Assembly: GCA_017475765.1 (NCBI GenBank)
Contig: JAFVEY010000027.1
Coordinates: 9,911-73,910 of the forward strand
From: Clostridia bacterium
Lineage (GTDB): Bacteria; Bacillota; Clostridia; Oscillospirales; Acutalibacteraceae
Length of the DNA stretch: 64,000 bases
Direction: 5' to 3'
Shown: positions 46,018-53,996 of the stretch, piece after piece
How the letters are laid out: the number at the start of each line of letters is the position of its first letter
How positions within the stretch are numbered: position 1 is the stretch's first letter
Made by a program: the position numbers and the translations under genes
Notes under the pieces: generated by a model
Told to the model about the DNA's origin: nothing
Seen by the model: the letters and a program-made list of their open reading frames with translations, nothing else
Databases searched by the model: none

Positions 46018-49000
46018 ATGGCGACTATTGAGAACAGTAAATTTCTTGAATCCATTATTGAAAAAGCAAAAACGTATACCGAAGAGGGCAATGTAACGAT
46101 TGATACGATTTTTCTTGCAATGATGGAATTTGTTGAAAATGTATCAGGACCGGAACTGACATCTGAGCAGATAGAGCTGAAAAGGCTTATTTCCGAAAAT
46201 GTCGATCTTTCAAGCGCCGCAAAGCTCCTGCATGAAGAAATAAAGAAAAAGAAAATTTCTTTTATTGATAATATCAATTATCAGAAACTGATCAAGGAAG
46301 CATCGGAACAGTCGGAAAAAAGCAGCCTGACAGAGCTGAGAGCAGATATTCTTGCTCAGTGTATCGTAAGATCTCCTTCCAACTCCATTAAAACAATTCT
46401 GAACCGTAAATCCGATAAACCGGCATTGGATGTGCCGCTGCAGAAAGCCGCTGATATATCCGAAACTCACGATAAGACAACCGCTGATGAAAAAACAGAG
46501 GCTCCCGAACCGGAAAAAGAAGAATCTGCAGACCCGCTTGATAAGCTCCGTCAGGTCGAGGCACTTGTAAAGAAAACAAAGCAGATAAGCGATATTCTGT
46601 CGAAAAAGCTGTATGGTCAGAATAATGCGATCGCCACCTTTGTTTCGGGCTATTTCCAGTCACTTATGCTGAAACTGACAGGAGAAACAAGAAATGCTCC
46701 CGGAGCATCATTTCTTTTTGCAGGCCCTCCCGGTGTCGGCAAGACCTTCCTTGCGGAATCGGTTGCGGAAGTTCTGGAGCTTCCGTATAAGCGCTTCGAT
46801 ATGAGCGAATACTCCGATCATGAGGCTAATATGATGTTCTGCGGCTATGATAACGTCTATAAAAATGCCGCTCCCGGTCATGTAACATCGTTTGTGGAAG
46901 AAAATCCGAAATGTATCCTTCTTTTTGATGAAATCGAAAAATGTCATCTCAATGTCATACACCTTTTCCTTCAGCTTCTGGATGCAGGCAGACTTAAGGA
47001 TAACTATACAAGAAAAGAAGTATCGTTCAAGGATGCGATCATTATTCTGACGACAAATGCAGGAAGAGAAATCTATGAAAATTCCGATTCCGGAGATTTC
47101 TCCGATATTCCGAGAAAGGTGATACTCAAGACGCTTCAGAGCGACATCAACCCCGTGACGGGAGCACCGTTCTTTCCGGGAGCAATATGCTCACGCTTTG
47201 CAACAGGCAATGTTGTCATGTTCAATCGTATGGATGTTACGGGACTCAGCTCGATCGTGAAAAAGGAAATGTCCAGAAATGCGGATAATATTGCAAAGAG
47301 CCTTGATGTCAAACTGGAAATTGACGAAAATATCTATACGGCTGTTTTGTTTGCCGAGGGCGGCGGAGTTGATGCAAGAACCGCAAGGAGCAGAGCGCAG
47401 ACCTTTATAGATAAGGAATTGTTTGAGCTTTTCAGACTGATGACATCGGAAGCATCTGTCAGCAAGATTGAGGATGTCAAGAAAATATCATTCTCGATGG
47501 AGCTGCCGAAGGAAAACAAGGTGATCTACGAAACCTTTAATATGTGTGAAAAGCCGGAAGCGCTTGTATTTGCTTCGTCAGATGTGGAGAGTAAATTTGA
47601 AAAAAGCAAGGGGTTCTTTGATCCTGTATTCGTTGATAATATTGAAAAAGCAAAGGAGCTTCTGACAAAGCGTGATATTAAATTCGTACTGATTGATTTC
47701 AGCTTCGGTGGAAACAACAATATTTATAATTATCTGAATATTGAGGATGTTTACTCTGCCGGAAGAGATTTTTTGCGTGAGATCAGAGAAAACTATAAAT
47801 CAGTTCCTGCCTATATTATCCAGACCGAAACCTATGAGTTCAGCCCAGAGGAAAGAGTTTCGCTCCTGCACCAAGGCGCAAGAGATATCATTGAGCTTGA
47901 ACCGAATGATACCATGACCGAACAGCTTGCCGAAATATGCAGAGCTTTGCATCGCCAGCAGAGTATGTATGAAATGACCAGCAGGGGAAAGGTGCTTACC
48001 TTTGAAACCGCTCAGACTGTTTCAAAAACAGATGAGGGACTGGAAGCCGAAATAAAACTGTTCGATTTCAGAACGGTAACTGCGGTTGATGCAGAGGATA
48101 ATGGACAGATCGTCAACAACCTTTCAAGACCCAATACGAAATTTGATGATGTGATCGGTGCGGATGATGTCAAGGAGGAACTCAGATATTTTGCGGAGTA
48201 TATGAAAAATCCGAGAAAATATGCCGGCACCGGACTCAGAGCGCCGAGAGGTATCCTTCTTTACGGTCCTCCCGGAACAGGTAAAACGCTTATGGCAAAG
48301 GCGCTGGCAGGGGAATCGGATACGACATTTATCAGCGCAGAAGGAAATCAGTTCCTTAAAAAATATGTGGGAGAGGGTCCTGAAGCGGTACACAGACTTT
48401 TCAGAACCGCAAGAAAATATGCGCCGTCCATTCTTTTTATTGATGAAATTGATGCTATCGGCAAATCAAGAGAGGGAGAGGGAGGACATATCAACGGCGA
48501 TATTCTTACTGCCTTTCTTGCAGAGATGGATGGTTTCAGCTCCGACCCGTCCAAGCCTGTGTTTGTGCTTGCCGCTACCAATTATGATGTTGACCCGGAA
48601 AGTCCGAGGTGCATAGACCCTGCACTTCTCAGACGCTTTGACAGAAAAATGTATGTCGATCTTCCGAAAAAGGAGGAAAGAAAGAAATATCTTGATATGA
48701 AACTGGCGGCAAATAAGGCGTTCAGTGTTAGTGATGCTGCTGCCGGCAGTCTTGCCAACCGTTCAATCGGAATGAGCCTTGCAGAGCTGGAATCGGTTCT
48801 GGAGCTTGCTCTTCGCAGCGCTGTCCGTACAGGCAGTATGTCTGTCACCGATAAGATCCTTGACGATGCTTTTGAAACCTTCAACAGCGGAGAAAGGAAG
48901 GAATGGAGCGAGGAGATCATGCTGCGTACGGCAAGGCATGAATCAGGTCATACGCTTATGTGCCGTCTTACGGGTGAAAAGCCGTCTTATGTGACCATCG

Positions 49001-49464
49001 TTTCCAGAGGAAACTTCGGCGGCTATATGCAGCATGCCGACAATGAAGAAAAGAGCGGCTATACAAAGAAGGATATGTTCGGCAAGATACGCACAGCCCT
49101 CGGAGGACGTGCAGCTGAAATCGTTTATTACGGAAATGAGGACGGCATCTCGACAGGCGCATCATCCGATCTTTCTTCCGCAACAAGAATGGCAACAAGT
49201 ATGCTTTGCCGGTTCGGTATGATAGAAGAATTCGGAATGGGTGTGCTTTCGGATCAGGAGCTTTTATATTCTCCTGCTGCCTCTGAGGTGAGAAGTGCCG
49301 TCAATAAGATACTGAATGAGCAGCTTGAAATGGCAGTCATGCTGATCTCCGCACACAGAGACTGCATTGACGCTCTTTCCTCACAGCTGCTTGCGAATAA
49401 TCATCTGAATACCGAGGAGATAGATGAAATTATAGGAAGATTTATTGATCTGAGCAAGATTTAA
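46018..49464 (+). CDS. chimeric soluble AAA+ metalloprotease: Clp-N-like + ClpA/B-D2-type AAA + receiver-like + FtsH-type AAA + M41 peptidase
   Basis: LYGQNNAIA..GPPGVGKTFLAESVAEVL..LLFDEIEKCH..LLDAGRL..TTNAG (ClpAB D2). A CheY-like alternating pattern follows. Then ILLYGPPGTGKTLMAKALA..ILFIDEIDA..ATNYDVDP..ALLRRFD (FtsH AAA) and HESGH with conserved downstream acidic residues (M41). No TM helices. Confidence 0.7.
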   Translation: MATIENSKFLESIIEKAKTYTEEGNVTIDTIFLAMMEFVENVSGPELTSEQIELKRLISENVDLSSAAKLLHEEIKKKKISFIDNINYQKLIKEASEQSEKSSLTELRADILAQCIVRSPSNSIKTILNRKSDKPALDVPLQKAADISETHDKTTADEKTEAPEPEKEESADPLDKLRQVEALVKKTKQISDILSKKLYGQNNAIATFVSGYFQSLMLKLTGETRNAPGASFLFAGPPGVGKTFLAESVAEVLELPYKRFDMSEYSDHEANMMFCGYDNVYKNAAPGHVTSFVEENPKCILLFDEIEKCHLNVIHLFLQLLDAGRLKDNYTRKEVSFKDAIIILTTNAGREIYENSDSGDFSDIPRKVILKTLQSDINPVTGAPFFPGAICSRFATGNVVMFNRMDVTGLSSIVKKEMSRNADNIAKSLDVKLEIDENIYTAVLFAEGGGVDARTARSRAQTFIDKELFELFRLMTSEASVSKIEDVKKISFSMELPKENKVIYETFNMCEKPEALVFASSDVESKFEKSKGFFDPVFVDNIEKAKELLTKRDIKFVLIDFSFGGNNNIYNYLNIEDVYSAGRDFLREIRENYKSVPAYIIQTETYEFSPEERVSLLHQGARDIIELEPNDTMTEQLAEICRALHRQQSMYEMTSRGKVLTFETAQTVSKTDEGLEAEIKLFDFRTVTAVDAEDNGQIVNNLSRPNTKFDDVIGADDVKEELRYFAEYMKNPRKYAGTGLRAPRGILLYGPPGTGKTLMAKALAGESDTTFISAEGNQFLKKYVGEGPEAVHRLFRTARKYAPSILFIDEIDAIGKSREGEGGHINGDILTAFLAEMDGFSSDPSKPVFVLAATNYDVDPESPRCIDPALLRRFDRKMYVDLPKKEERKKYLDMKLAANKAFSVSDAAAGSLANRSIGMSLAELESVLELALRSAVRTGSMSVTDKILDDAFETFNSGERKEWSEEIMLRTARHESGHTLMCRLTGEKPSYVTIVSRGNFGGYMQHADNEEKSGYTKKDMFGKIRTALGGRAAEIVYYGNEDGISTGASSDLSSATRMATSMLCRFGMIEEFGMGVLSDQELLYSPAASEVRSAVNKILNEQLEMAVMLISAHRDCIDALSSQLLANNHLNTEEIDEIIGRFIDLSKI

Positions 49465-49480: not shown

Positions 49481-51763
49481 ATGACACAGCTTATGATACT
49501 ATTCTGCCTTTCTCCGATATGTCTGTTGATCGGTGTAGCTTGGCTTGTAAAGCTGAAAATCAGTAAGAAATACAGCTCTACAAGCCGTAAGCTGTGTATA
49601 TTCTCTCTGTCGCTGGTTCTGACCATTTTTATCATGCACCTGCTGGTTTCCGTATATCAGGTTCATTTTGTGCTGGGGGCTGACGGTGAACAAAACGGAA
49701 TGGAGCTGATATCGGCAAGTATCATCCACACGCTGCAAAGCTTCAGTATGGATGCTTCCTATGGAGATTATATTGCTGATGCCAAATCAATGCTTGCCGC
49801 TTATTTCGGCAGCGGTTCACCTTGGGTGACGGCTTATACGGTTTTCATAGCTTTGACCAATGTGGCGGCACCTGTGTCCGGAGGAGCAATTTTGTTTGAT
49901 ATCCTGACGACATTTATACCGGAGCTGAGGCTTTTTGTCGTGCTGCCGTTCAGAAAAAAATATTATTTTTCAGAACTGAATGAGCGTTCGCTTGCACTTG
50001 CGGAAAGTATCTATTCCCGCAGCAGAAAAAGTTTTCTGAAGCCTGTACTGATTTTTACGGACGCTTATGTTGACGAAGACGATGAATTAAAATCAGAGCT
50101 GCTGATTGCGGCAAAGGCGATCGGAGCAATATGTGTAAAATCAGATCTCAGGTACACGCTGAAACAGGAAAAGAATACTTATGTTTTTCTGATTGACGAA
50201 AATGAAACAGATAATCTGAAAACTCTTATCACACTTACAGAAAAAAAACATTATCAGACGCTCAAAAATGCCTTTATTTATATTTTTTGCGAAAAGGGAT
50301 ATACAAGCAGCGTTGAAAGAGAAGTACACAGCAAGCTCGAAAGGTTTTTCTCTTCAAAGTGGAAAAATTGTGAAAAGAATATGCCTATCATCATTTCCGT
50401 CAAAAGCTATCAGAATATGATCTGTAATTTGTTTAATGATGTGCCGCTGTTTGAACCGTTTCTGACGAAGAATGCGATACCCTATCATCAGGAAAAAAAG
50501 CTGGTGCTTACGATCATCGGAAGCGGAAAGATTGGAACAGAGGCATTTCTGACGGCAACATGGTGTGCGCAGATGCTCGACACAGAGCTTGTCATCAATG
50601 TTATCTCCAAAGAAACCGAGGAGGAATTCTGCAGTAGGGTAGACTTTGTCAATCCGGATATTCTTGAAAGTACCAAAGAACGATCCGAACTTTTAAGAAT
50701 TTACAAGCACAGGGAGGATGAGCAGGCTTTTGCTGCTCCTTATTTCAGATTCCAGTATTTTCGGTCGGATCTTGTTTCCAAAAATACAGATGAGCTTCTT
50801 GATGAAAAGCTGAAGGTGGGCGGCACTTTATTTGATACGGACTATTTTATTGTGACACTAGGTGCAGATGATATCAATATTTCCTTTGCAGACAAGCTGA
50901 GAACGGCAATTGAAAGGAAAGCTCTGGGACACCTGACAGATAGTGAGAGTACATATAAAAAGAAGATCATCGCCTATGCCGTTTATGACAAGGAAATATC
51001 TGATTCGCTGAATCATGCGGATTCACTCAGAAGCAGCTCCGCCGGCGGCAATGTGCTTGAACGCTGCAAGCCTTGTATGTATGCCTTTGGCAATATCAAG
51101 GAGCTGTACGGGGCAGAAAATGTATTTATGAGTATCTTCGAGGATATGTCCGAGCAACTGGCAGCAGCCTATCAGGAAAGAAAGGAAGCTCTGGTTGATA
51201 CCGACAAGGAAAAATTCAGAGAGAAAACGGATAAAAGGTACAATGACGAATACAATTACAGTTCCAATAATGCAAGAGCGGTTCATCAGCCGTATAAGAT
51301 GTATTCGGCAGGTATTCTGAAGGAATCTGTTTTTGACGATCATTGCTGTTTCAGGCATAAATCGGATTATGAAGCATTGATTTACCGTTTTTATCAGTTC
51401 CTTACAGACAAAGAGGAGTTTTCTCAGGAGAAAAAGGATATCATTAGAAGGCTGACATGGCTCGAACACAGAAGATGGAATGCGTTCATCAGGGTGCAGG
51501 GACTCAGGCACGCAACCGATGATGAGCATGAGACATTCTTTAAGCTCACAGGAAAGCATAAAGACCTGTCTGCAAAACTGCATAACTGTCTTGTTGAAAG
51601 CAGCGATAAGGAATTTGAAGATGTCACCACTCTTTATCATGATGAATCGGAGCTTGACGAAAACAAGCATGATCTTCTCGACTATGAATCATTCAAGGCT
51701 CACAGTTATTACAAATCTTATGATATGCCTGTTGCCGAGATAAAAATTACTATGAAAAAATGA
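49481..51763 (+). CDS. membrane protein with N-terminal TM helices, RCK/TrkA-N-like Rossmann motif and C-terminal RyR-like domain
   Basis: TM helices in the first ~70 aa. IIGSGKIGTEAF is a GxGxxG motif. LTWLEHRRWNAFIRVQG...KLHNCLV resembles the RyR domain pattern LAExHExW...GW...KLHPxLV. It starts 17 nt after the protease gene, so the two are probably co-transcribed. Confidence 0.45.
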   Translation: MTQLMILFCLSPICLLIGVAWLVKLKISKKYSSTSRKLCIFSLSLVLTIFIMHLLVSVYQVHFVLGADGEQNGMELISASIIHTLQSFSMDASYGDYIADAKSMLAAYFGSGSPWVTAYTVFIALTNVAAPVSGGAILFDILTTFIPELRLFVVLPFRKKYYFSELNERSLALAESIYSRSRKSFLKPVLIFTDAYVDEDDELKSELLIAAKAIGAICVKSDLRYTLKQEKNTYVFLIDENETDNLKTLITLTEKKHYQTLKNAFIYIFCEKGYTSSVEREVHSKLERFFSSKWKNCEKNMPIIISVKSYQNMICNLFNDVPLFEPFLTKNAIPYHQEKKLVLTIIGSGKIGTEAFLTATWCAQMLDTELVINVISKETEEEFCSRVDFVNPDILESTKERSELLRIYKHREDEQAFAAPYFRFQYFRSDLVSKNTDELLDEKLKVGGTLFDTDYFIVTLGADDINISFADKLRTAIERKALGHLTDSESTYKKKIIAYAVYDKEISDSLNHADSLRSSSAGGNVLERCKPCMYAFGNIKELYGAENVFMSIFEDMSEQLAAAYQERKEALVDTDKEKFREKTDKRYNDEYNYSSNNARAVHQPYKMYSAGILKESVFDDHCCFRHKSDYEALIYRFYQFLTDKEEFSQEKKDIIRRLTWLEHRRWNAFIRVQGLRHATDDEHETFFKLTGKHKDLSAKLHNCLVESSDKEFEDVTTLYHDESELDENKHDLLDYESFKAHSYYKSYDMPVAEIKITMKK

Positions 51764-51902
51764 TTCGTTTGATATCGGACTGTCAGACAGTAAAATATCT
51801 CAGCTAAGACTTTTGTATGTTTTTAACTCACCCCCCACCTTTTGTGCAATGAAATTTACCAAAACATACTGAAAAATATAGTAAGTGAAAGTAGGTGATA
51901 AT

Positions 51903-53789
51903 ATGTCATTATTTTTTGATCGCAAAATTGGTAAATCTAATCAACCAAAACAGTCAAAATGCTTTATCAGTCATTGTAGTGATGATAATATAATTATGAA
52001 CAGTCTGTCAGAATTTATTGATGTTACATTTGGCTACAATATAACAAGAGTCAATAACAGATTTTTCTGTACATATCATAATAGTGTGGCAGCAGGCATT
52101 GCATTAAATAAGAAGCTTAACCAAGAGCTTAATGAATGTGATTATATGATTGCTGTTATTACTGATAGTTATGTAAGAAGTACTGTATCAATTTATGAAC
52201 TTTGCTCATTTTACTTTGCTGGGAAGCCCGTGATACCGATTATTTATAATGGAGTTGTGGGAGAAAAATTTATAAGGGATATTTTTAATGAAAATATTGT
52301 TTATATTAAAGCTGATAAAAGTACTTCATTATCAGAACTTTCGTTACAATTTTTGAAATCTCTGAGCGAACAGGGATTAAGACCGAATGTATTAGAATCA
52401 CAGGCTGTCGAATATGCAGAAAGATTTTTTGAGGTGTCTGCGCAAAAAAAGCCAAGCAGATCTTTTATAGGTTGCGATGAAGAAAAATATGATAAACTTA
52501 TAAGAAAATGTGCAGAAATGGGTATTTGTGAATTCAGATCTGACAATAATGGAAATATTGAGCAACTTGCCGATAGCAAAGAGCTTTTCATACTTTCTAC
52601 TACCGGTGATTCACTGATAAAAAAACTATCTGAGTTTGTTATTCCTAAAATTATCAGAAACGGCGGAACTGTTATTGTTCTTATACCTAATAAGGAATCA
52701 GCATTTTGCAGAGATATAGCTGAGATAGAAAATCCAGATGATTTTCAGTACAATCAAAAACGTCTTGATAATGAATTTGATAATGTTATCATTAACTTAA
52801 GAAGATGCGTAAAGAAGGCATCTGAAGAGATTTCTGATCAGAAATTGGGAAAGATATATATAGGCTGTGCATTTAATCTTTTAAGACAGACTATTACACT
52901 TGGAATAACTGAGGAATATTTTTTGGGGTGGATGTCTGTTACAATTCCCCCTAAGCGTACTGTAACTGGAACACCTACAATTGATTTTAAGAGTGAAATA
53001 AACTGTGAATCTGGTCTTGGTTATATGCTGTATCATCATATAAATGCAGTATGCTCTATGGCAAAGACGAGAAATTGTTTTTTTGAAATAACATATGAAA
53101 GAAATTTTGACAGAGGATTTTATCTTGAACCTTCGACGGCAAAGGACTACTGGCAGGAAAAATCAGATTTGGCTGTTCAATTTATGAGGGAAGCTAAAAT
53201 TTATGACGATATTCTGATTGAAGTTGCGGCGCAGCATCCTCTGCATAATGGTAACAAACCGGGACCGGAATTTGCTGCACGGCTAGATTTTGCTTTTGAT
53301 TTATATAAAAAGTATAAGCAAATCGGAAAAAATGTAAAAATGTATGTTCCTGGAAGTATTCATAAGTATAAAGGCAAAACGGATAATATATCGCTAAGTA
53401 AATCAGGATGTGATTATCTTTTATCTAAAGGAGCAGAACCGGACGATCTTTATGGTGAAGAAATGAATAATAAATATAAAGGAGAAAGCGGAGTATACAA
53501 TTCTGCAGATGAGTGTTTTGTTGCAAAAAGTATTTTTTTTGATGGAGAGTTCAATTCACTTTTTTGCGTTTGCTCACCTAATCAGATGATGCGTAAAAAG
53601 TTGTTTTATTTAGAAATGGGAATTCTTCCGAAGTTTTATACTGTTCCGTGTGATATAATGTTTCATTCGGATATTTACGAAATATTTGAAGCTTTGCCAA
53701 ATGTTATATATCAAGATCATTCTCAGCAGGAAGAAGGTTCTGAAGAAGCAGTTCGTACAAGAAAAGAAAGAAAACCAGGATATATTTGA
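51903..53789 (+). CDS. TIR-like domain protein with long C-terminal extension (possible DUF218/YdcF-like region); very AT-rich gene
   Basis: N-terminus KCFISHCSDDN...ECDYMIAVITDSYVRSTVSIYELCSF follows the TIR pattern (FISY..D...L...G...ivlS..y..S.WC..EL). GC is about 30% against about 45-50% in the flanks. Confidence 0.5.
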   Translation: MSLFFDRKIGKSNQPKQSKCFISHCSDDNIIMNSLSEFIDVTFGYNITRVNNRFFCTYHNSVAAGIALNKKLNQELNECDYMIAVITDSYVRSTVSIYELCSFYFAGKPVIPIIYNGVVGEKFIRDIFNENIVYIKADKSTSLSELSLQFLKSLSEQGLRPNVLESQAVEYAERFFEVSAQKKPSRSFIGCDEEKYDKLIRKCAEMGICEFRSDNNGNIEQLADSKELFILSTTGDSLIKKLSEFVIPKIIRNGGTVIVLIPNKESAFCRDIAEIENPDDFQYNQKRLDNEFDNVIINLRRCVKKASEEISDQKLGKIYIGCAFNLLRQTITLGITEEYFLGWMSVTIPPKRTVTGTPTIDFKSEINCESGLGYMLYHHINAVCSMAKTRNCFFEITYERNFDRGFYLEPSTAKDYWQEKSDLAVQFMREAKIYDDILIEVAAQHPLHNGNKPGPEFAARLDFAFDLYKKYKQIGKNVKMYVPGSIHKYKGKTDNISLSKSGCDYLLSKGAEPDDLYGEEMNNKYKGESGVYNSADECFVAKSIFFDGEFNSLFCVCSPNQMMRKKLFYLEMGILPKFYTVPCDIMFHSDIYEIFEALPNVIYQDHSQQEEGSEEAVRTRKERKPGYI

Positions 53790-53935
53790 AGAAATCAGAA
53801 TGTGCTGTAATAATATTTTACTTGAATGTAAAGTATTTTGTTACAGCGCATTTTTAGTTAGTGAAATTATTGCTAATATTTTCATCTATTTTTTTGCAGG
53901 CATTGTTATAATTCCGAAAATATTGGTAATTGATT

Positions 53936-53964
53936 GACAAAGCGTAGGGAAAAAATTATAATAT
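53936..53964 (+). promoter_or_regulatory. consensus promoter (TTGACA-17-TATAAT) for the glycopolymer locus
   Basis: -35 at 53936-53941 and -10 at 53959-53964. Confidence 0.5.
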
Positions 53965-53996
53965 AACAGAATTATTATGTATAGGACTGCTTGCTT

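Follow-up and report, generated by a model that had tools for sequence, protein, structure and literature searches.

Introduction

TIR enzymes play a central part in the immunity of bacteria, plants, and animals, and the systems built around them differ in how the enzyme is switched on and in what reads its products. SpbK of Bacillus subtilis ICEBs1 (PDB 9phb) is a single-gene TIR abortive-infection protein, the NADase activity of which depends on self-association (PMC12847820). DUF4062, for which experiments demonstrated the role of a TIR-like NADase effector, is joined to C-terminal sensor regions in the anti-phage systems Swarozyc, Evangelion, and Vulcan (preprints of 2026: 10.64898/2026.05.01.722283, 10.64898/2026.06.25.731849, 10.64898/2026.09.04.749371). 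Metis and Vesta have an NADase effector that detects nucleotides set free upon infection, and the basal ligand is cleared by an accessory enzyme. Proteins with the RyR domain (PF02026) bind or hydrolyse the TIR products 2' and 3' cyclic ADP-ribose (2'cADPR and 3'cADPR), and the phage protein RyDEP is an RyR-domain glycosidase or sponge for both (PMC13232231, a preprint of May 2026). Here, we analyse a gene for a 628-residue protein with TIR, PLD-like, and YdcF-like domains, located at 51903..53789 of a 64,000-nucleotide stretch of DNA from a Clostridia bacterium (contig JAFVEY010000027.1). The stretch is called the window below, and the features given with window coordinates lie on its plus strand. 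The gene was delineated from its open reading frame (ORF), an AlphaFold2 (AF2) model of the protein, and homologues. It probably represents a TIR-based, NAD+-directed defence with a new control module, which is not a PLD enzyme, not a recognised type of Thoeris, and not included in PADLOC v2.

Domain organization of the TIR protein

The AF2 model of the whole protein has a pLDDT of 94.2 and a pTM of 0.87, and it contains three confidently modelled domains. Neither membrane segments nor a signal peptide are predicted. The N-terminal TIR domain (residues ~18-140; 51954..52322) carries the motifs FISHCSDD and TDSYvRS..s..E. The family profile identifies SpbK (E = 2e-13), Cat1 (1.2e-10), BtTir (1.3e-6), and AbTIR (1.6e-5) among the sequences of the PDB. 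The domain has a TIR fold with significant profile similarity to known TIRs, and it is nearest to the NAD-depleting effectors SpbK and Cat1, which both form filaments, not to ThsB. The predicted catalytic glutamate is Glu99 (codon 52197..52199), which is invariant together with R92 and S93 in 110 of 110 homologues and aligns with the glutamates of SpbK (CLNEM), Cat1 (CWDEL), BtTir (TEYEL), and AT1G72930 (CLDEL). Judged by its sequence, the N-terminus is a genuine TIR domain with a catalytic glutamate, and the intact motif and closest similarity to SpbK and Cat1 point to NADase activity. A preliminary description of the window had recognised the TIR domain and made the assignment hinge on a conserved catalytic glutamate. 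The profile matches and Glu99 bear it out, and the peptide strings it cited are all found in the translation.

Used alone, the sequence of the TIR protein gives only sub-threshold matches to profile libraries. The match to Pfam TIR_2 scores 21.7 bits (E = 3e-4), which is below the curated score of 28 bits. However, most homologues, 190 of which were collected, carry a precomputed PF13676 call, indicating that the shortfall is due to the divergence of this one sequence. The PADLOC model of SpbK matches residues 11-100, that is, the TIR region only (E = 1.6e-4), and the NCBIfam scan gave nothing useful. A search of the PDB with the whole chain in Foldseek is dominated by TIR-APAZ (SPARTA) proteins through the TIR domain and is uninformative for the remainder. 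The TIR domain is followed by a linker (residues 141-190; 52323..52472), which is helical according to the secondary structure of the AF2 model and is the least conserved segment of the protein. The mean pairwise identity is 22% in the linker, 35% in the TIR domain, 37% in the middle domain, and 49% in the C-terminal domain.

The preliminary description left the approximately 500 residues after the TIR domain unassigned. About 220 of them (residues ~191-410; 52473..53132) form a middle domain that has a PLD-like fold without the HKD motif, according to the AF2 model and the conservation pattern. The polar residues T233, E276, R328-Q329-T330, and T347 are invariant, as is P350. The domain has the PLD fold, but a conserved His-x-Lys, required for the motif HxK(x)4D, is absent, and the equivalent strand carries R328-Q329-T330. 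Because the HKD motif is missing, the middle domain is classed with the non-catalytic PLD-like folds, such as those of TrmB and FAM83, and not with the PLD enzymes. Its nearest fold relative is the sugar-binding domain of TrmB, which is a known ligand sensor. It is proposed that the middle domain is a ligand-binding or sensor domain.

The C-terminal domain (residues 411-628; 53133..53786) has a very divergent YdcF/DUF218-like fold in the AF2 model, with the Rossmann-like topology of the YdcF type. It is better conserved than every other part of the protein and contains the motifs LIEVAAQHPL, YVPGSxH, SLSxAG, GVYNSADEC, SPxQxxRK, FH..E, and RxRxP. The invariant residues are E440, Q444-H445-P446, R460, P483-G484-S485, H487, D494, N522, Y532-N533, D536-E537-C538, S558-P559, Q561, R564, H588, E593, R620, and R623. 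Standalone versions of the domain retain these residues, but not C555 and C557. The set of invariants looks like that of an enzyme.

The assignment of the C-terminal part to DUF218/YdcF in the preliminary description holds at the level of the fold, whereas the sequence supports it weakly: the match to Pfam PF02698 (DUF218) reaches 13.8 bits (E = 0.055), and the curated score is 27.6 bits. A few homologues pass this cutoff, among them one with 30.0 bits (L058; loci of homologues are designated by L and a number) and one with 32.5 bits (P0220). A profile restricted to the C-terminal domain finds no YdcF among the PDB sequences. An exhaustive phmmer search of 1.84 billion proteins with the domain yielded 267 representatives at E<=1e-3, none of which is a canonical DUF218 protein. 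The family has no annotation and does not appear in PADLOC, and its sequences favour placing it in a distant branch of DUF218/YdcF of its own.

Composition and boundaries of the gene

The gene starts with the ATG at 51903 and ends with the stop codon at 53787-53789. The mechanical list of ORFs opens the frame earlier, at GTG 51885. The ATG is preferred because it is preceded by the Shine-Dalgarno sequence AGGTGA (51893-51898, a consensus match only). An identical 628-residue protein in the database, derived from a metagenome-assembled genome (MAG) and entitled 'MAG: hypothetical protein IJ861_03205 [Clostridia bacterium]', likewise starts at this ATG. The identical protein is present on eight contigs.

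The content of guanine and cytosine (GC) of the gene is 0.326, compared to 0.437 for the whole window. The GC profile is 0.30-0.35 inside the gene and 0.40-0.49 on both sides of it, and the gene nearly coincides with the lowest-GC stretch of 1887 bp in the 64 kb (z = -3.35; 0.8% of such stretches are as low or lower). The sharp drop of base composition reported in the preliminary description is thus real and limited to the TIR gene, although the value of ~30% given there is slightly too low. The GC content at third codon positions (GC3) is 0.226, whereas three neighbouring genes have values of 0.446, 0.449, and 0.462. No other ORF in the window deviates as much in composition: the 42 plus-strand ORFs of at least 150 residues have a mean GC3 of 0.463 with a standard deviation of 0.053, and the lowest GC3 after that of the TIR gene is 0.395. 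When the gene is divided into four parts, each of them is as low as the others (GC3 0.21-0.26), indicating that the entire gene is foreign, not just one of its domains. The horizontal acquisition of the gene, which had been proposed in the preliminary description, is well supported by both GC and GC3.

Direct or inverted repeats of any meaning were not found flanking the low-GC segment. There is no presence-absence polymorphism among close relatives: all contigs with a 98%-identical copy of the upstream neighbour TM760, described below, keep the gene order, and a gene of equal length occupies the position of the TIR gene on all contigs of related strains. Because the order is shared by all of them, direct evidence of insertion is lacking. 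The 139-bp gap upstream of the gene contains two promoter-like sites (51769-51796 and 51855-51882, consensus matches only). No terminator is predicted between TM760 and the TIR gene, so that read-through from TM760 is possible, and none is predicted after the TIR gene. A perfect sigma-70 consensus, TTGACA-17-TATAAT with 12 of 12 matches (53934..53962), is positioned 29 nucleotides upstream of the GT2 gene at 53991, indicating that the downstream cluster is a separate transcription unit. Together with the upstream promoter-like sites, it makes the TIR gene look like a unit of its own.

Occurrence of the domains in other genomes

Genome loci and ORF mapping distinguish five architectures in the family. 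The TIR domain precedes the middle and C-terminal domains in proteins of ~600-650 residues; DUF4062 precedes both domains or the C-terminal domain alone (~430-670 residues); and a winged helix (Trans_reg_C) precedes both (~560-575 residues). The middle and C-terminal domains also occur without an N-terminal domain (415-485 residues), as does the C-terminal domain alone (213-260 residues). The N-terminus is therefore swapped among TIR, DUF4062, and a winged-helix domain on the same core, which would look like the pattern expected of one sensor with interchangeable outputs.

The middle and C-terminal domains are fused in most family members. Candidate two-gene forms, in which a separate gene for the middle domain is upstream of the gene for the C-terminal domain, are found in MAGs of Acidobacteriota, Anaerolineales, Collinsella, and Ellagibacter. 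The two genes overlap or abut in L064:1945-3790, L075:9839-11309, L076:9250-10636, and L080:9617-10642, and the upstream gene matches the middle domain with E-values of 1.7e-35, 7.7e-34, and 2e-12 in the first three; the match is partial in L080. Since the domains are fused in some genomes and encoded by adjacent genes in others, they can be regarded as one functional unit.

The distribution of the family is patchy and includes rumen and gut Clostridia, Spirochaetaceae, Bacteroidales, Erysipelotrichaceae, the Actinomycetota Streptomyces and Kitasatospora, Acidobacteriota, and Patescibacteria. The GC content of the gene is more than 5 points below that of its flanks in 23 of 76 loci. Four IMG/VR viral contigs of 88-295 kb (L165-L168) encode a standalone C-terminal domain of 212-213 residues, which is 42-47% identical to that of the window. 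On one of them (L168:7298-8618), the gene is located directly after that for thymidylate kinase and near a HipA-like kinase. That phages carry the domain may be a hint of a role related to nucleotides or in counter-defence. Among cultured organisms with complete sequences, a family member was found only in Ruminococcus albus 7 (WP_013483453.1; L169:6629-8326). This protein is a 'hypothetical protein' of 565 residues with the middle and C-terminal domains, which matches residues 191-625 with 43% identity. It is encoded near par and mob genes on pRUMAL01, a mobilizable megaplasmid of 420 kb.

Genomic neighbourhood

Most family members stand alone. All-against-all clustering of neighbours and bulk Pfam scanning did not identify a conserved partner gene across 74 loci, indicating that the TIR protein must usually be self-sufficient. 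The 122 genes within two positions of TIR-type members carry 220 Pfam families, mostly housekeeping, of which TIR_2 is the commonest with four occurrences. A minority of loci have defence neighbours (Csn2, MzaA, HEC-06, mad2, and PDC). A clear defence island is seen in L005:334-13011, where a family member is located inside a type I restriction-modification operon with a reverse-transcriptase gene between hsdS and hsdR, and the island continues with a TIR-STAND (NPHP3_N) protein and a WYL regulator. The preliminary description suggested a defence or accessory island for the gene in the window, but its flanks are of a different kind. Transporter and aminotransferase genes are located upstream, and GT2, ABC-2-like, Glyphos_transf, and Stealth genes, which form a cluster of the teichoic-acid or capsule type, follow from 53991.

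The upstream neighbour of the TIR gene encodes TM760, a protein of 760 residues (49481..51763) with three or four membrane helices at the N-terminus and an RyR-like motif at the C-terminus, which also contains a tandem RCK/KTN gating-ring fold. A Pfam scan of TM760 gave no match. In a profile-profile comparison with hhalign, small PF02026 RyR proteins could be aligned with the motif WLEHRRWNAF...KLHNCLVE (E = 1.1e-4, probability 56%); a hidden Markov model (HMM) built from four RyR sequences does not match the tail. The window does not contain a separate small RyR gene. A gene for a 1148-residue protein with ClpA/B-like AAA, FtsH-like AAA, and M41 peptidase domains (46018..49464; Pfam and NCBIfam) ends 16 nucleotides upstream of TM760. 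The preliminary description named these genes an AAA-protease/RyR operon, which is correct for the AAA/M41 gene. However, TM760, which was lumped in with it, is an RCK-channel-like membrane protein with an RyR-like tail. The same description saw no obvious ThsA-like partner of the TIR protein. Indeed, Thoeris effector domains such as SIR2-SLOG, Macro-TM, or caspase-like were not found among the neighbours in the window, and PADLOC gave no match to Thoeris there. Nevertheless, TM760 is a possible partner, and relatives of it are again found beside TIR-type members of the family in other phyla.

The TM760 family comprises 85 homologues. A small RyR gene is directly downstream of the TM760-family gene or fused to it in about 30 of 70 loci, and the AAA/M41 protease gene is located beside TM760 homologues in at least six loci (L089, L114, L127, L130, L136, and L149). 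Within three genes of 32 TM760-family loci, TIR_2 is the commonest Pfam family (11 of 120), mostly in TIR-TPR and TIR-LRR proteins. None of 70 independently fetched TM760 loci contains a member of the TIR-PLD-like-YdcF-like family. Two loci have more complex arrangements. In L090:2583-10960 (Clostridia MAG GCA_947630175.1), a weaker TM760-like ORF and a TM760-family gene are followed by a gene for a TIR-LRR protein, and the locus adjoins genes of polymorphic toxins (LHH, TNT, and SUKH immunity) and of a Mu-like prophage (Mor, GemA). The other locus, L116:337-15779 on the metagenome contig Ga0099364_10003533, is unusually rich in TIR genes: five ORFs that match the TIR profile surround a tandem pair of TM760-family genes.

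Starting from the TIR family, a TM760-like or RyR gene is found within 5 kb in 5 of 38 independent TIR-type loci, the window not being counted, and in 0 of 42 loci of non-TIR variants (Fisher p = 0.02). It abuts the TIR-type member on the same strand in the window, L001, L037, and L038, and is no more than 5 kb away in L033 and L083. The small RyR proteins and the RyR or RyR-like tails that occur with the TM760 family and with some members of the TIR family have the core H..W...GW...PCLVPY in common. The Spirochaetaceae locus L001 contains RyR, TM721, and TIR genes, and TM721 is 24% identical to TM760 (E = 3e-29). Because this identity is so low, the adjacency of TM760 and TIR genes is not derived from a single inherited event. 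In L038, the TIR-type member is abutted by a small RyR gene. The clearest example of the arrangement in the window is L037:50-5221 from a Lachnospiraceae MAG, in which three abutting genes on the same strand encode a 405-residue protein, TIR-like or other, cut by the contig start, a 626-residue TM-RCK protein with a canonical RyR C-terminus, and a 675-residue TIR-PLD-like-YdcF-like protein. Two further candidates were rejected: a 743-residue protein near the L007 homologue has no BLASTP similarity to TM760, and a borderline HMM match to TM760 (4.8e-4) of the ORF at 63-2231 of L007 was disregarded. The GC3 of the TM760-like and TIR genes matches in L001, L037, and L038, and differs only in the window (0.449 and 0.226), indicating that the TIR gene of the window arrived, or was replaced, later than TM760.

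Proposed mechanism and alternative explanations

The best explanation of these observations, with a probability of about 0.5, is that the gene encodes a cytoplasmic, horizontally acquired, NAD+-cleaving TIR protein of the defence type, which combines effector and sensor in one chain. The TIR domain would be catalytically competent for NAD+ cleavage, and, as in SpbK, its activity would require self-association. The PLD-like and YdcF-like unit would control the TIR domain through the recognition or processing of a small molecule that is conserved and changes during infection, for example a metabolite of the nucleotide or sugar-nucleotide type. Occupancy by the ligand would lead to the assembly of TIR domains and the cleavage of NAD+ to ADP-ribose (ADPR), with or without cyclic ADPR, and the depletion of NAD+ would result in abortive infection. 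A small-molecule cue is favoured over a fast-evolving phage protein because no other part of the protein is as conserved as the unit of middle and C-terminal domains, which resembles an enzyme and also exists without TIR. Further support for the single chain comes from the exchange of N-terminal outputs on one core, the likeness of the middle domain to TrmB, the lack of a conserved partner, the patchy distribution with foreign composition, the defence neighbours of a minority of loci, and the precedent of SpbK as a single gene. The analysis shows the identities of the domains, the intact catalytic motif, the domain swaps, the foreign composition, and the distribution of the family, from which we infer NADase activity, a role in defence, a ligand-type trigger, and a division of binding and possible catalysis between the two non-TIR domains. 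Since SpbK-type TIRs make both ADPR and cyclic ADPR, acting alone and generating a signal are compatible: the TIR protein could work by itself in most genomes and together with the channel-like protein in those that have one.

Several observations weigh against an effector and sensor in a single chain. The conservation of the C-terminal domain and its standalone occurrence in bacteria and viral contigs would equally fit a metabolic enzyme that does not sense infection. The matches to PADLOC and NCBIfam are weak and confined to the TIR region. Most neighbourhoods consist of housekeeping genes instead of defence islands, and the window is not a defence island. None of 50,697 phage records contains a family member, and the copy on pRUMAL01 is the only one on a plasmid. 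The presence of the RyR/RCK module within 5 kb in the window and in five other loci, abutting in four of the six, suggests that the TIR protein may be a signal generator as well as a terminal effector.

The last observation leads to an alternative in which the TIR protein and TM760 constitute a Thoeris-like pair. The TIR protein would be sensor and signal generator, converting NAD+ to an ADPR-derived signal, a cADPR isomer, for which the RyR-like tail, the RCK ring, or both parts of TM760 would be the receptor. TM760 would be the effector, for instance through ion leak or membrane depolarisation, with the AAA/M41 protease and the small RyR proteins of other genomes serving as regulators or signal buffers. 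The binding or hydrolysis of 2'cADPR and 3'cADPR by RyR-domain proteins (PMC13232231) would explain in biochemical terms why RyR and TIR genes occur together, SpbK-type TIRs make N1-cADPR besides ADPR (PMC12847820), and membrane helices with an RCK gating-ring fold are typical of ligand-gated channels. The enrichment of TM760 and RyR genes near TIR-type members but not near the other variants, their adjacency despite the 24% identity of the TM760 homologues of the window and L001, and the prevalence of TIR_2 around TM760-family loci point in the same direction. However, 33 of the 38 TIR-type loci lack a TM760 or RyR gene nearby, and the TIR family is missing from the 70 TM760 loci. The different GC3 of the two genes in the window shows that they were not acquired together, the resemblance of the TM760 tail to RyR is modest, the TIR domain is nearest to SpbK and Cat1 and not to ThsB, and the accessible text and supplements of the systematic Thoeris survey mention no RyR effector. 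The pairing is considered the main alternative, though a tentative one. Somewhat more speculative still is an undescribed TIR axis, in which an ADPR-derived nucleotide made by the TIR protein would gate TM760, regulated by the AAA/M41 and small RyR proteins.

A function outside immunity is unlikely. According to this alternative, the middle and C-terminal domains form an enzyme of metabolism or regulation, the substrate of which is a nucleotide, a sugar nucleotide, or an envelope precursor. The N-terminal domains would be regulatory add-ons that place the pathway under, for instance, NAD+-linked or transcriptional control. The highly conserved, enzyme-like C-terminal domain, which in many genomes occurs alone or with only the middle domain, would fit such an enzyme. 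So would its position after thymidylate kinase on one viral contig, the mostly housekeeping neighbours, and the wall-polysaccharide cluster that adjoins the gene in the window. Fusions to the winged helix-turn-helix domain resemble ligand-responsive regulators of the TrmB type, and the canonical DUF218 proteins SanA and ElyC act in envelope biogenesis (10.1101/2025.06.10.658892). However, the protein differs from SanA and ElyC in lacking a signal peptide and membrane segments, and its family is tiny and patchy (267 in 1.84e9 proteins), is foreign in composition in the window and ~30% of loci, and lacks conserved pathway neighbours. Moreover, TIR and DUF4062, which occur most often at the N-terminus, are immune effectors that destroy NAD+, and their catalytic residues are intact. 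It is very improbable that the gene is a non-enzymatic or decaying remnant, either unexpressed foreign DNA or a TIR that serves only as a scaffold. The GC3, very low relative to the host, could limit expression, and no terminator is predicted downstream, but the ORF of 628 codons is intact and retains all residues invariant in the family. The good Shine-Dalgarno sequence, the promoter-like sites, the very confident AF2 model, the identical protein on eight contigs, and the arrangement kept in related strains also speak against a remnant.

If the single-chain effector and sensor is correct, a canonical TIR or a DUF4062 NADase is coupled to a conserved PLD-like and YdcF-like module that is without precedent as an immune sensor. 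The conservation and enzyme-like appearance of the module point to a metabolite-type trigger, of which few examples, such as Metis and Vesta, are known. The large family of canonical DUF218 proteins, to which SanA and ElyC belong, has no known biochemistry, and working out the divergent branch would give a first foothold on this fold. The most novel element near the TIR gene is the RCK/RyR-like channel family with its TIR-rich neighbourhoods. TIR proteins being the commonest neighbours of the TM760 family and RyR domains binding 2'cADPR and 3'cADPR lead to the testable idea of bacterial membrane channels gated by TIR signals. If true, the axis of TIR and TM760 would be the bacterial counterpart of the idea that cADPR acts on ryanodine-receptor channels in animals, and TM760 would be a new class of Thoeris-like effector that pairs with many TIR sensors (TIR-TPR, TIR-LRR, and TIR-PLD-like-YdcF-like).

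Relationship to described defence systems

No paper was found in the literature on TIR or DUF4062 fused to a PLD-like or YdcF-like module, and whole-word searches for DUF218 with phage defence and YdcF with TIR domain found nothing. The matches obtained for TIR with DUF218 concern only DUF2188 and are an artefact of prefix matching. Compared to YdcF/DUF218 (PF02698; E. coli YdcF, PDB 3ca8), the C-terminal domain has its own motifs QHP, PGSxH, ADEC, and SPxQ. SanA and ElyC are periplasmic envelope factors, whereas the C-domain family is cytoplasmic and fused to immune domains. The middle domain lacks sequence similarity to the sugar-binding domain of TrmB (PDB 2f5t) and to FAM83, is not matched by Pfam Regulator_TrmB, and differs from them in being always coupled to a YdcF-like domain.

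The locus resembles Thoeris (types I-XI) in that a TIR protein is located beside a membrane protein with a candidate ADPR-nucleotide-binding, RyR-like domain, and in that diverse TIR genes cluster around the TM760 effector family. In contrast to Thoeris, the window has none of the known ThsA-K effector domains, the TIR protein is large and mostly alone, and RyR/RCK effectors do not appear in the accessible parts of the Thoeris survey. The similarity to RyDEP is in the small PF02026 proteins and RyR or RyR-like tails that accompany the TM760 family and some members of the TIR family. RyDEP is viral and counters defence, whereas the genes described here are chromosomal, are located beside TIR genes, and are partly fused to the channel-like protein, and their ligand binding is putative.

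SpbK has an N-terminal sensor and a TIR domain at the C-terminal end in 266 residues, whereas in the window protein the TIR domain comes first and is followed by ~490 residues unrelated to SpbK. The trigger of SpbK is a phage portal protein, whereas a small-molecule cue is envisaged here. By sequence comparison, the window protein is distinct from SpbK, since the relationship is confined to the TIR domains and the order of domains is reversed. The DUF4062/NIR systems share the logic of an N-terminal TIR-like NADase with a catalytic glutamate and a C-terminal auxiliary sensor. Their published sensors are short and unannotated, HEAT-repeat, or STAND/repeat regions, and a PLD-like or YdcF/DUF218-like module is not mentioned for any of them. 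At the N-terminus of the window protein there is a canonical TIR instead of DUF4062, but family members with DUF4062 on the same core exist. Vesta, which consists of NIR and an alkaline phosphatase, was considered and rejected as the same system because of its different architecture. In their logic, however, Metis and Vesta are comparable to the small-molecule control that the window TIR protein may be subject to.

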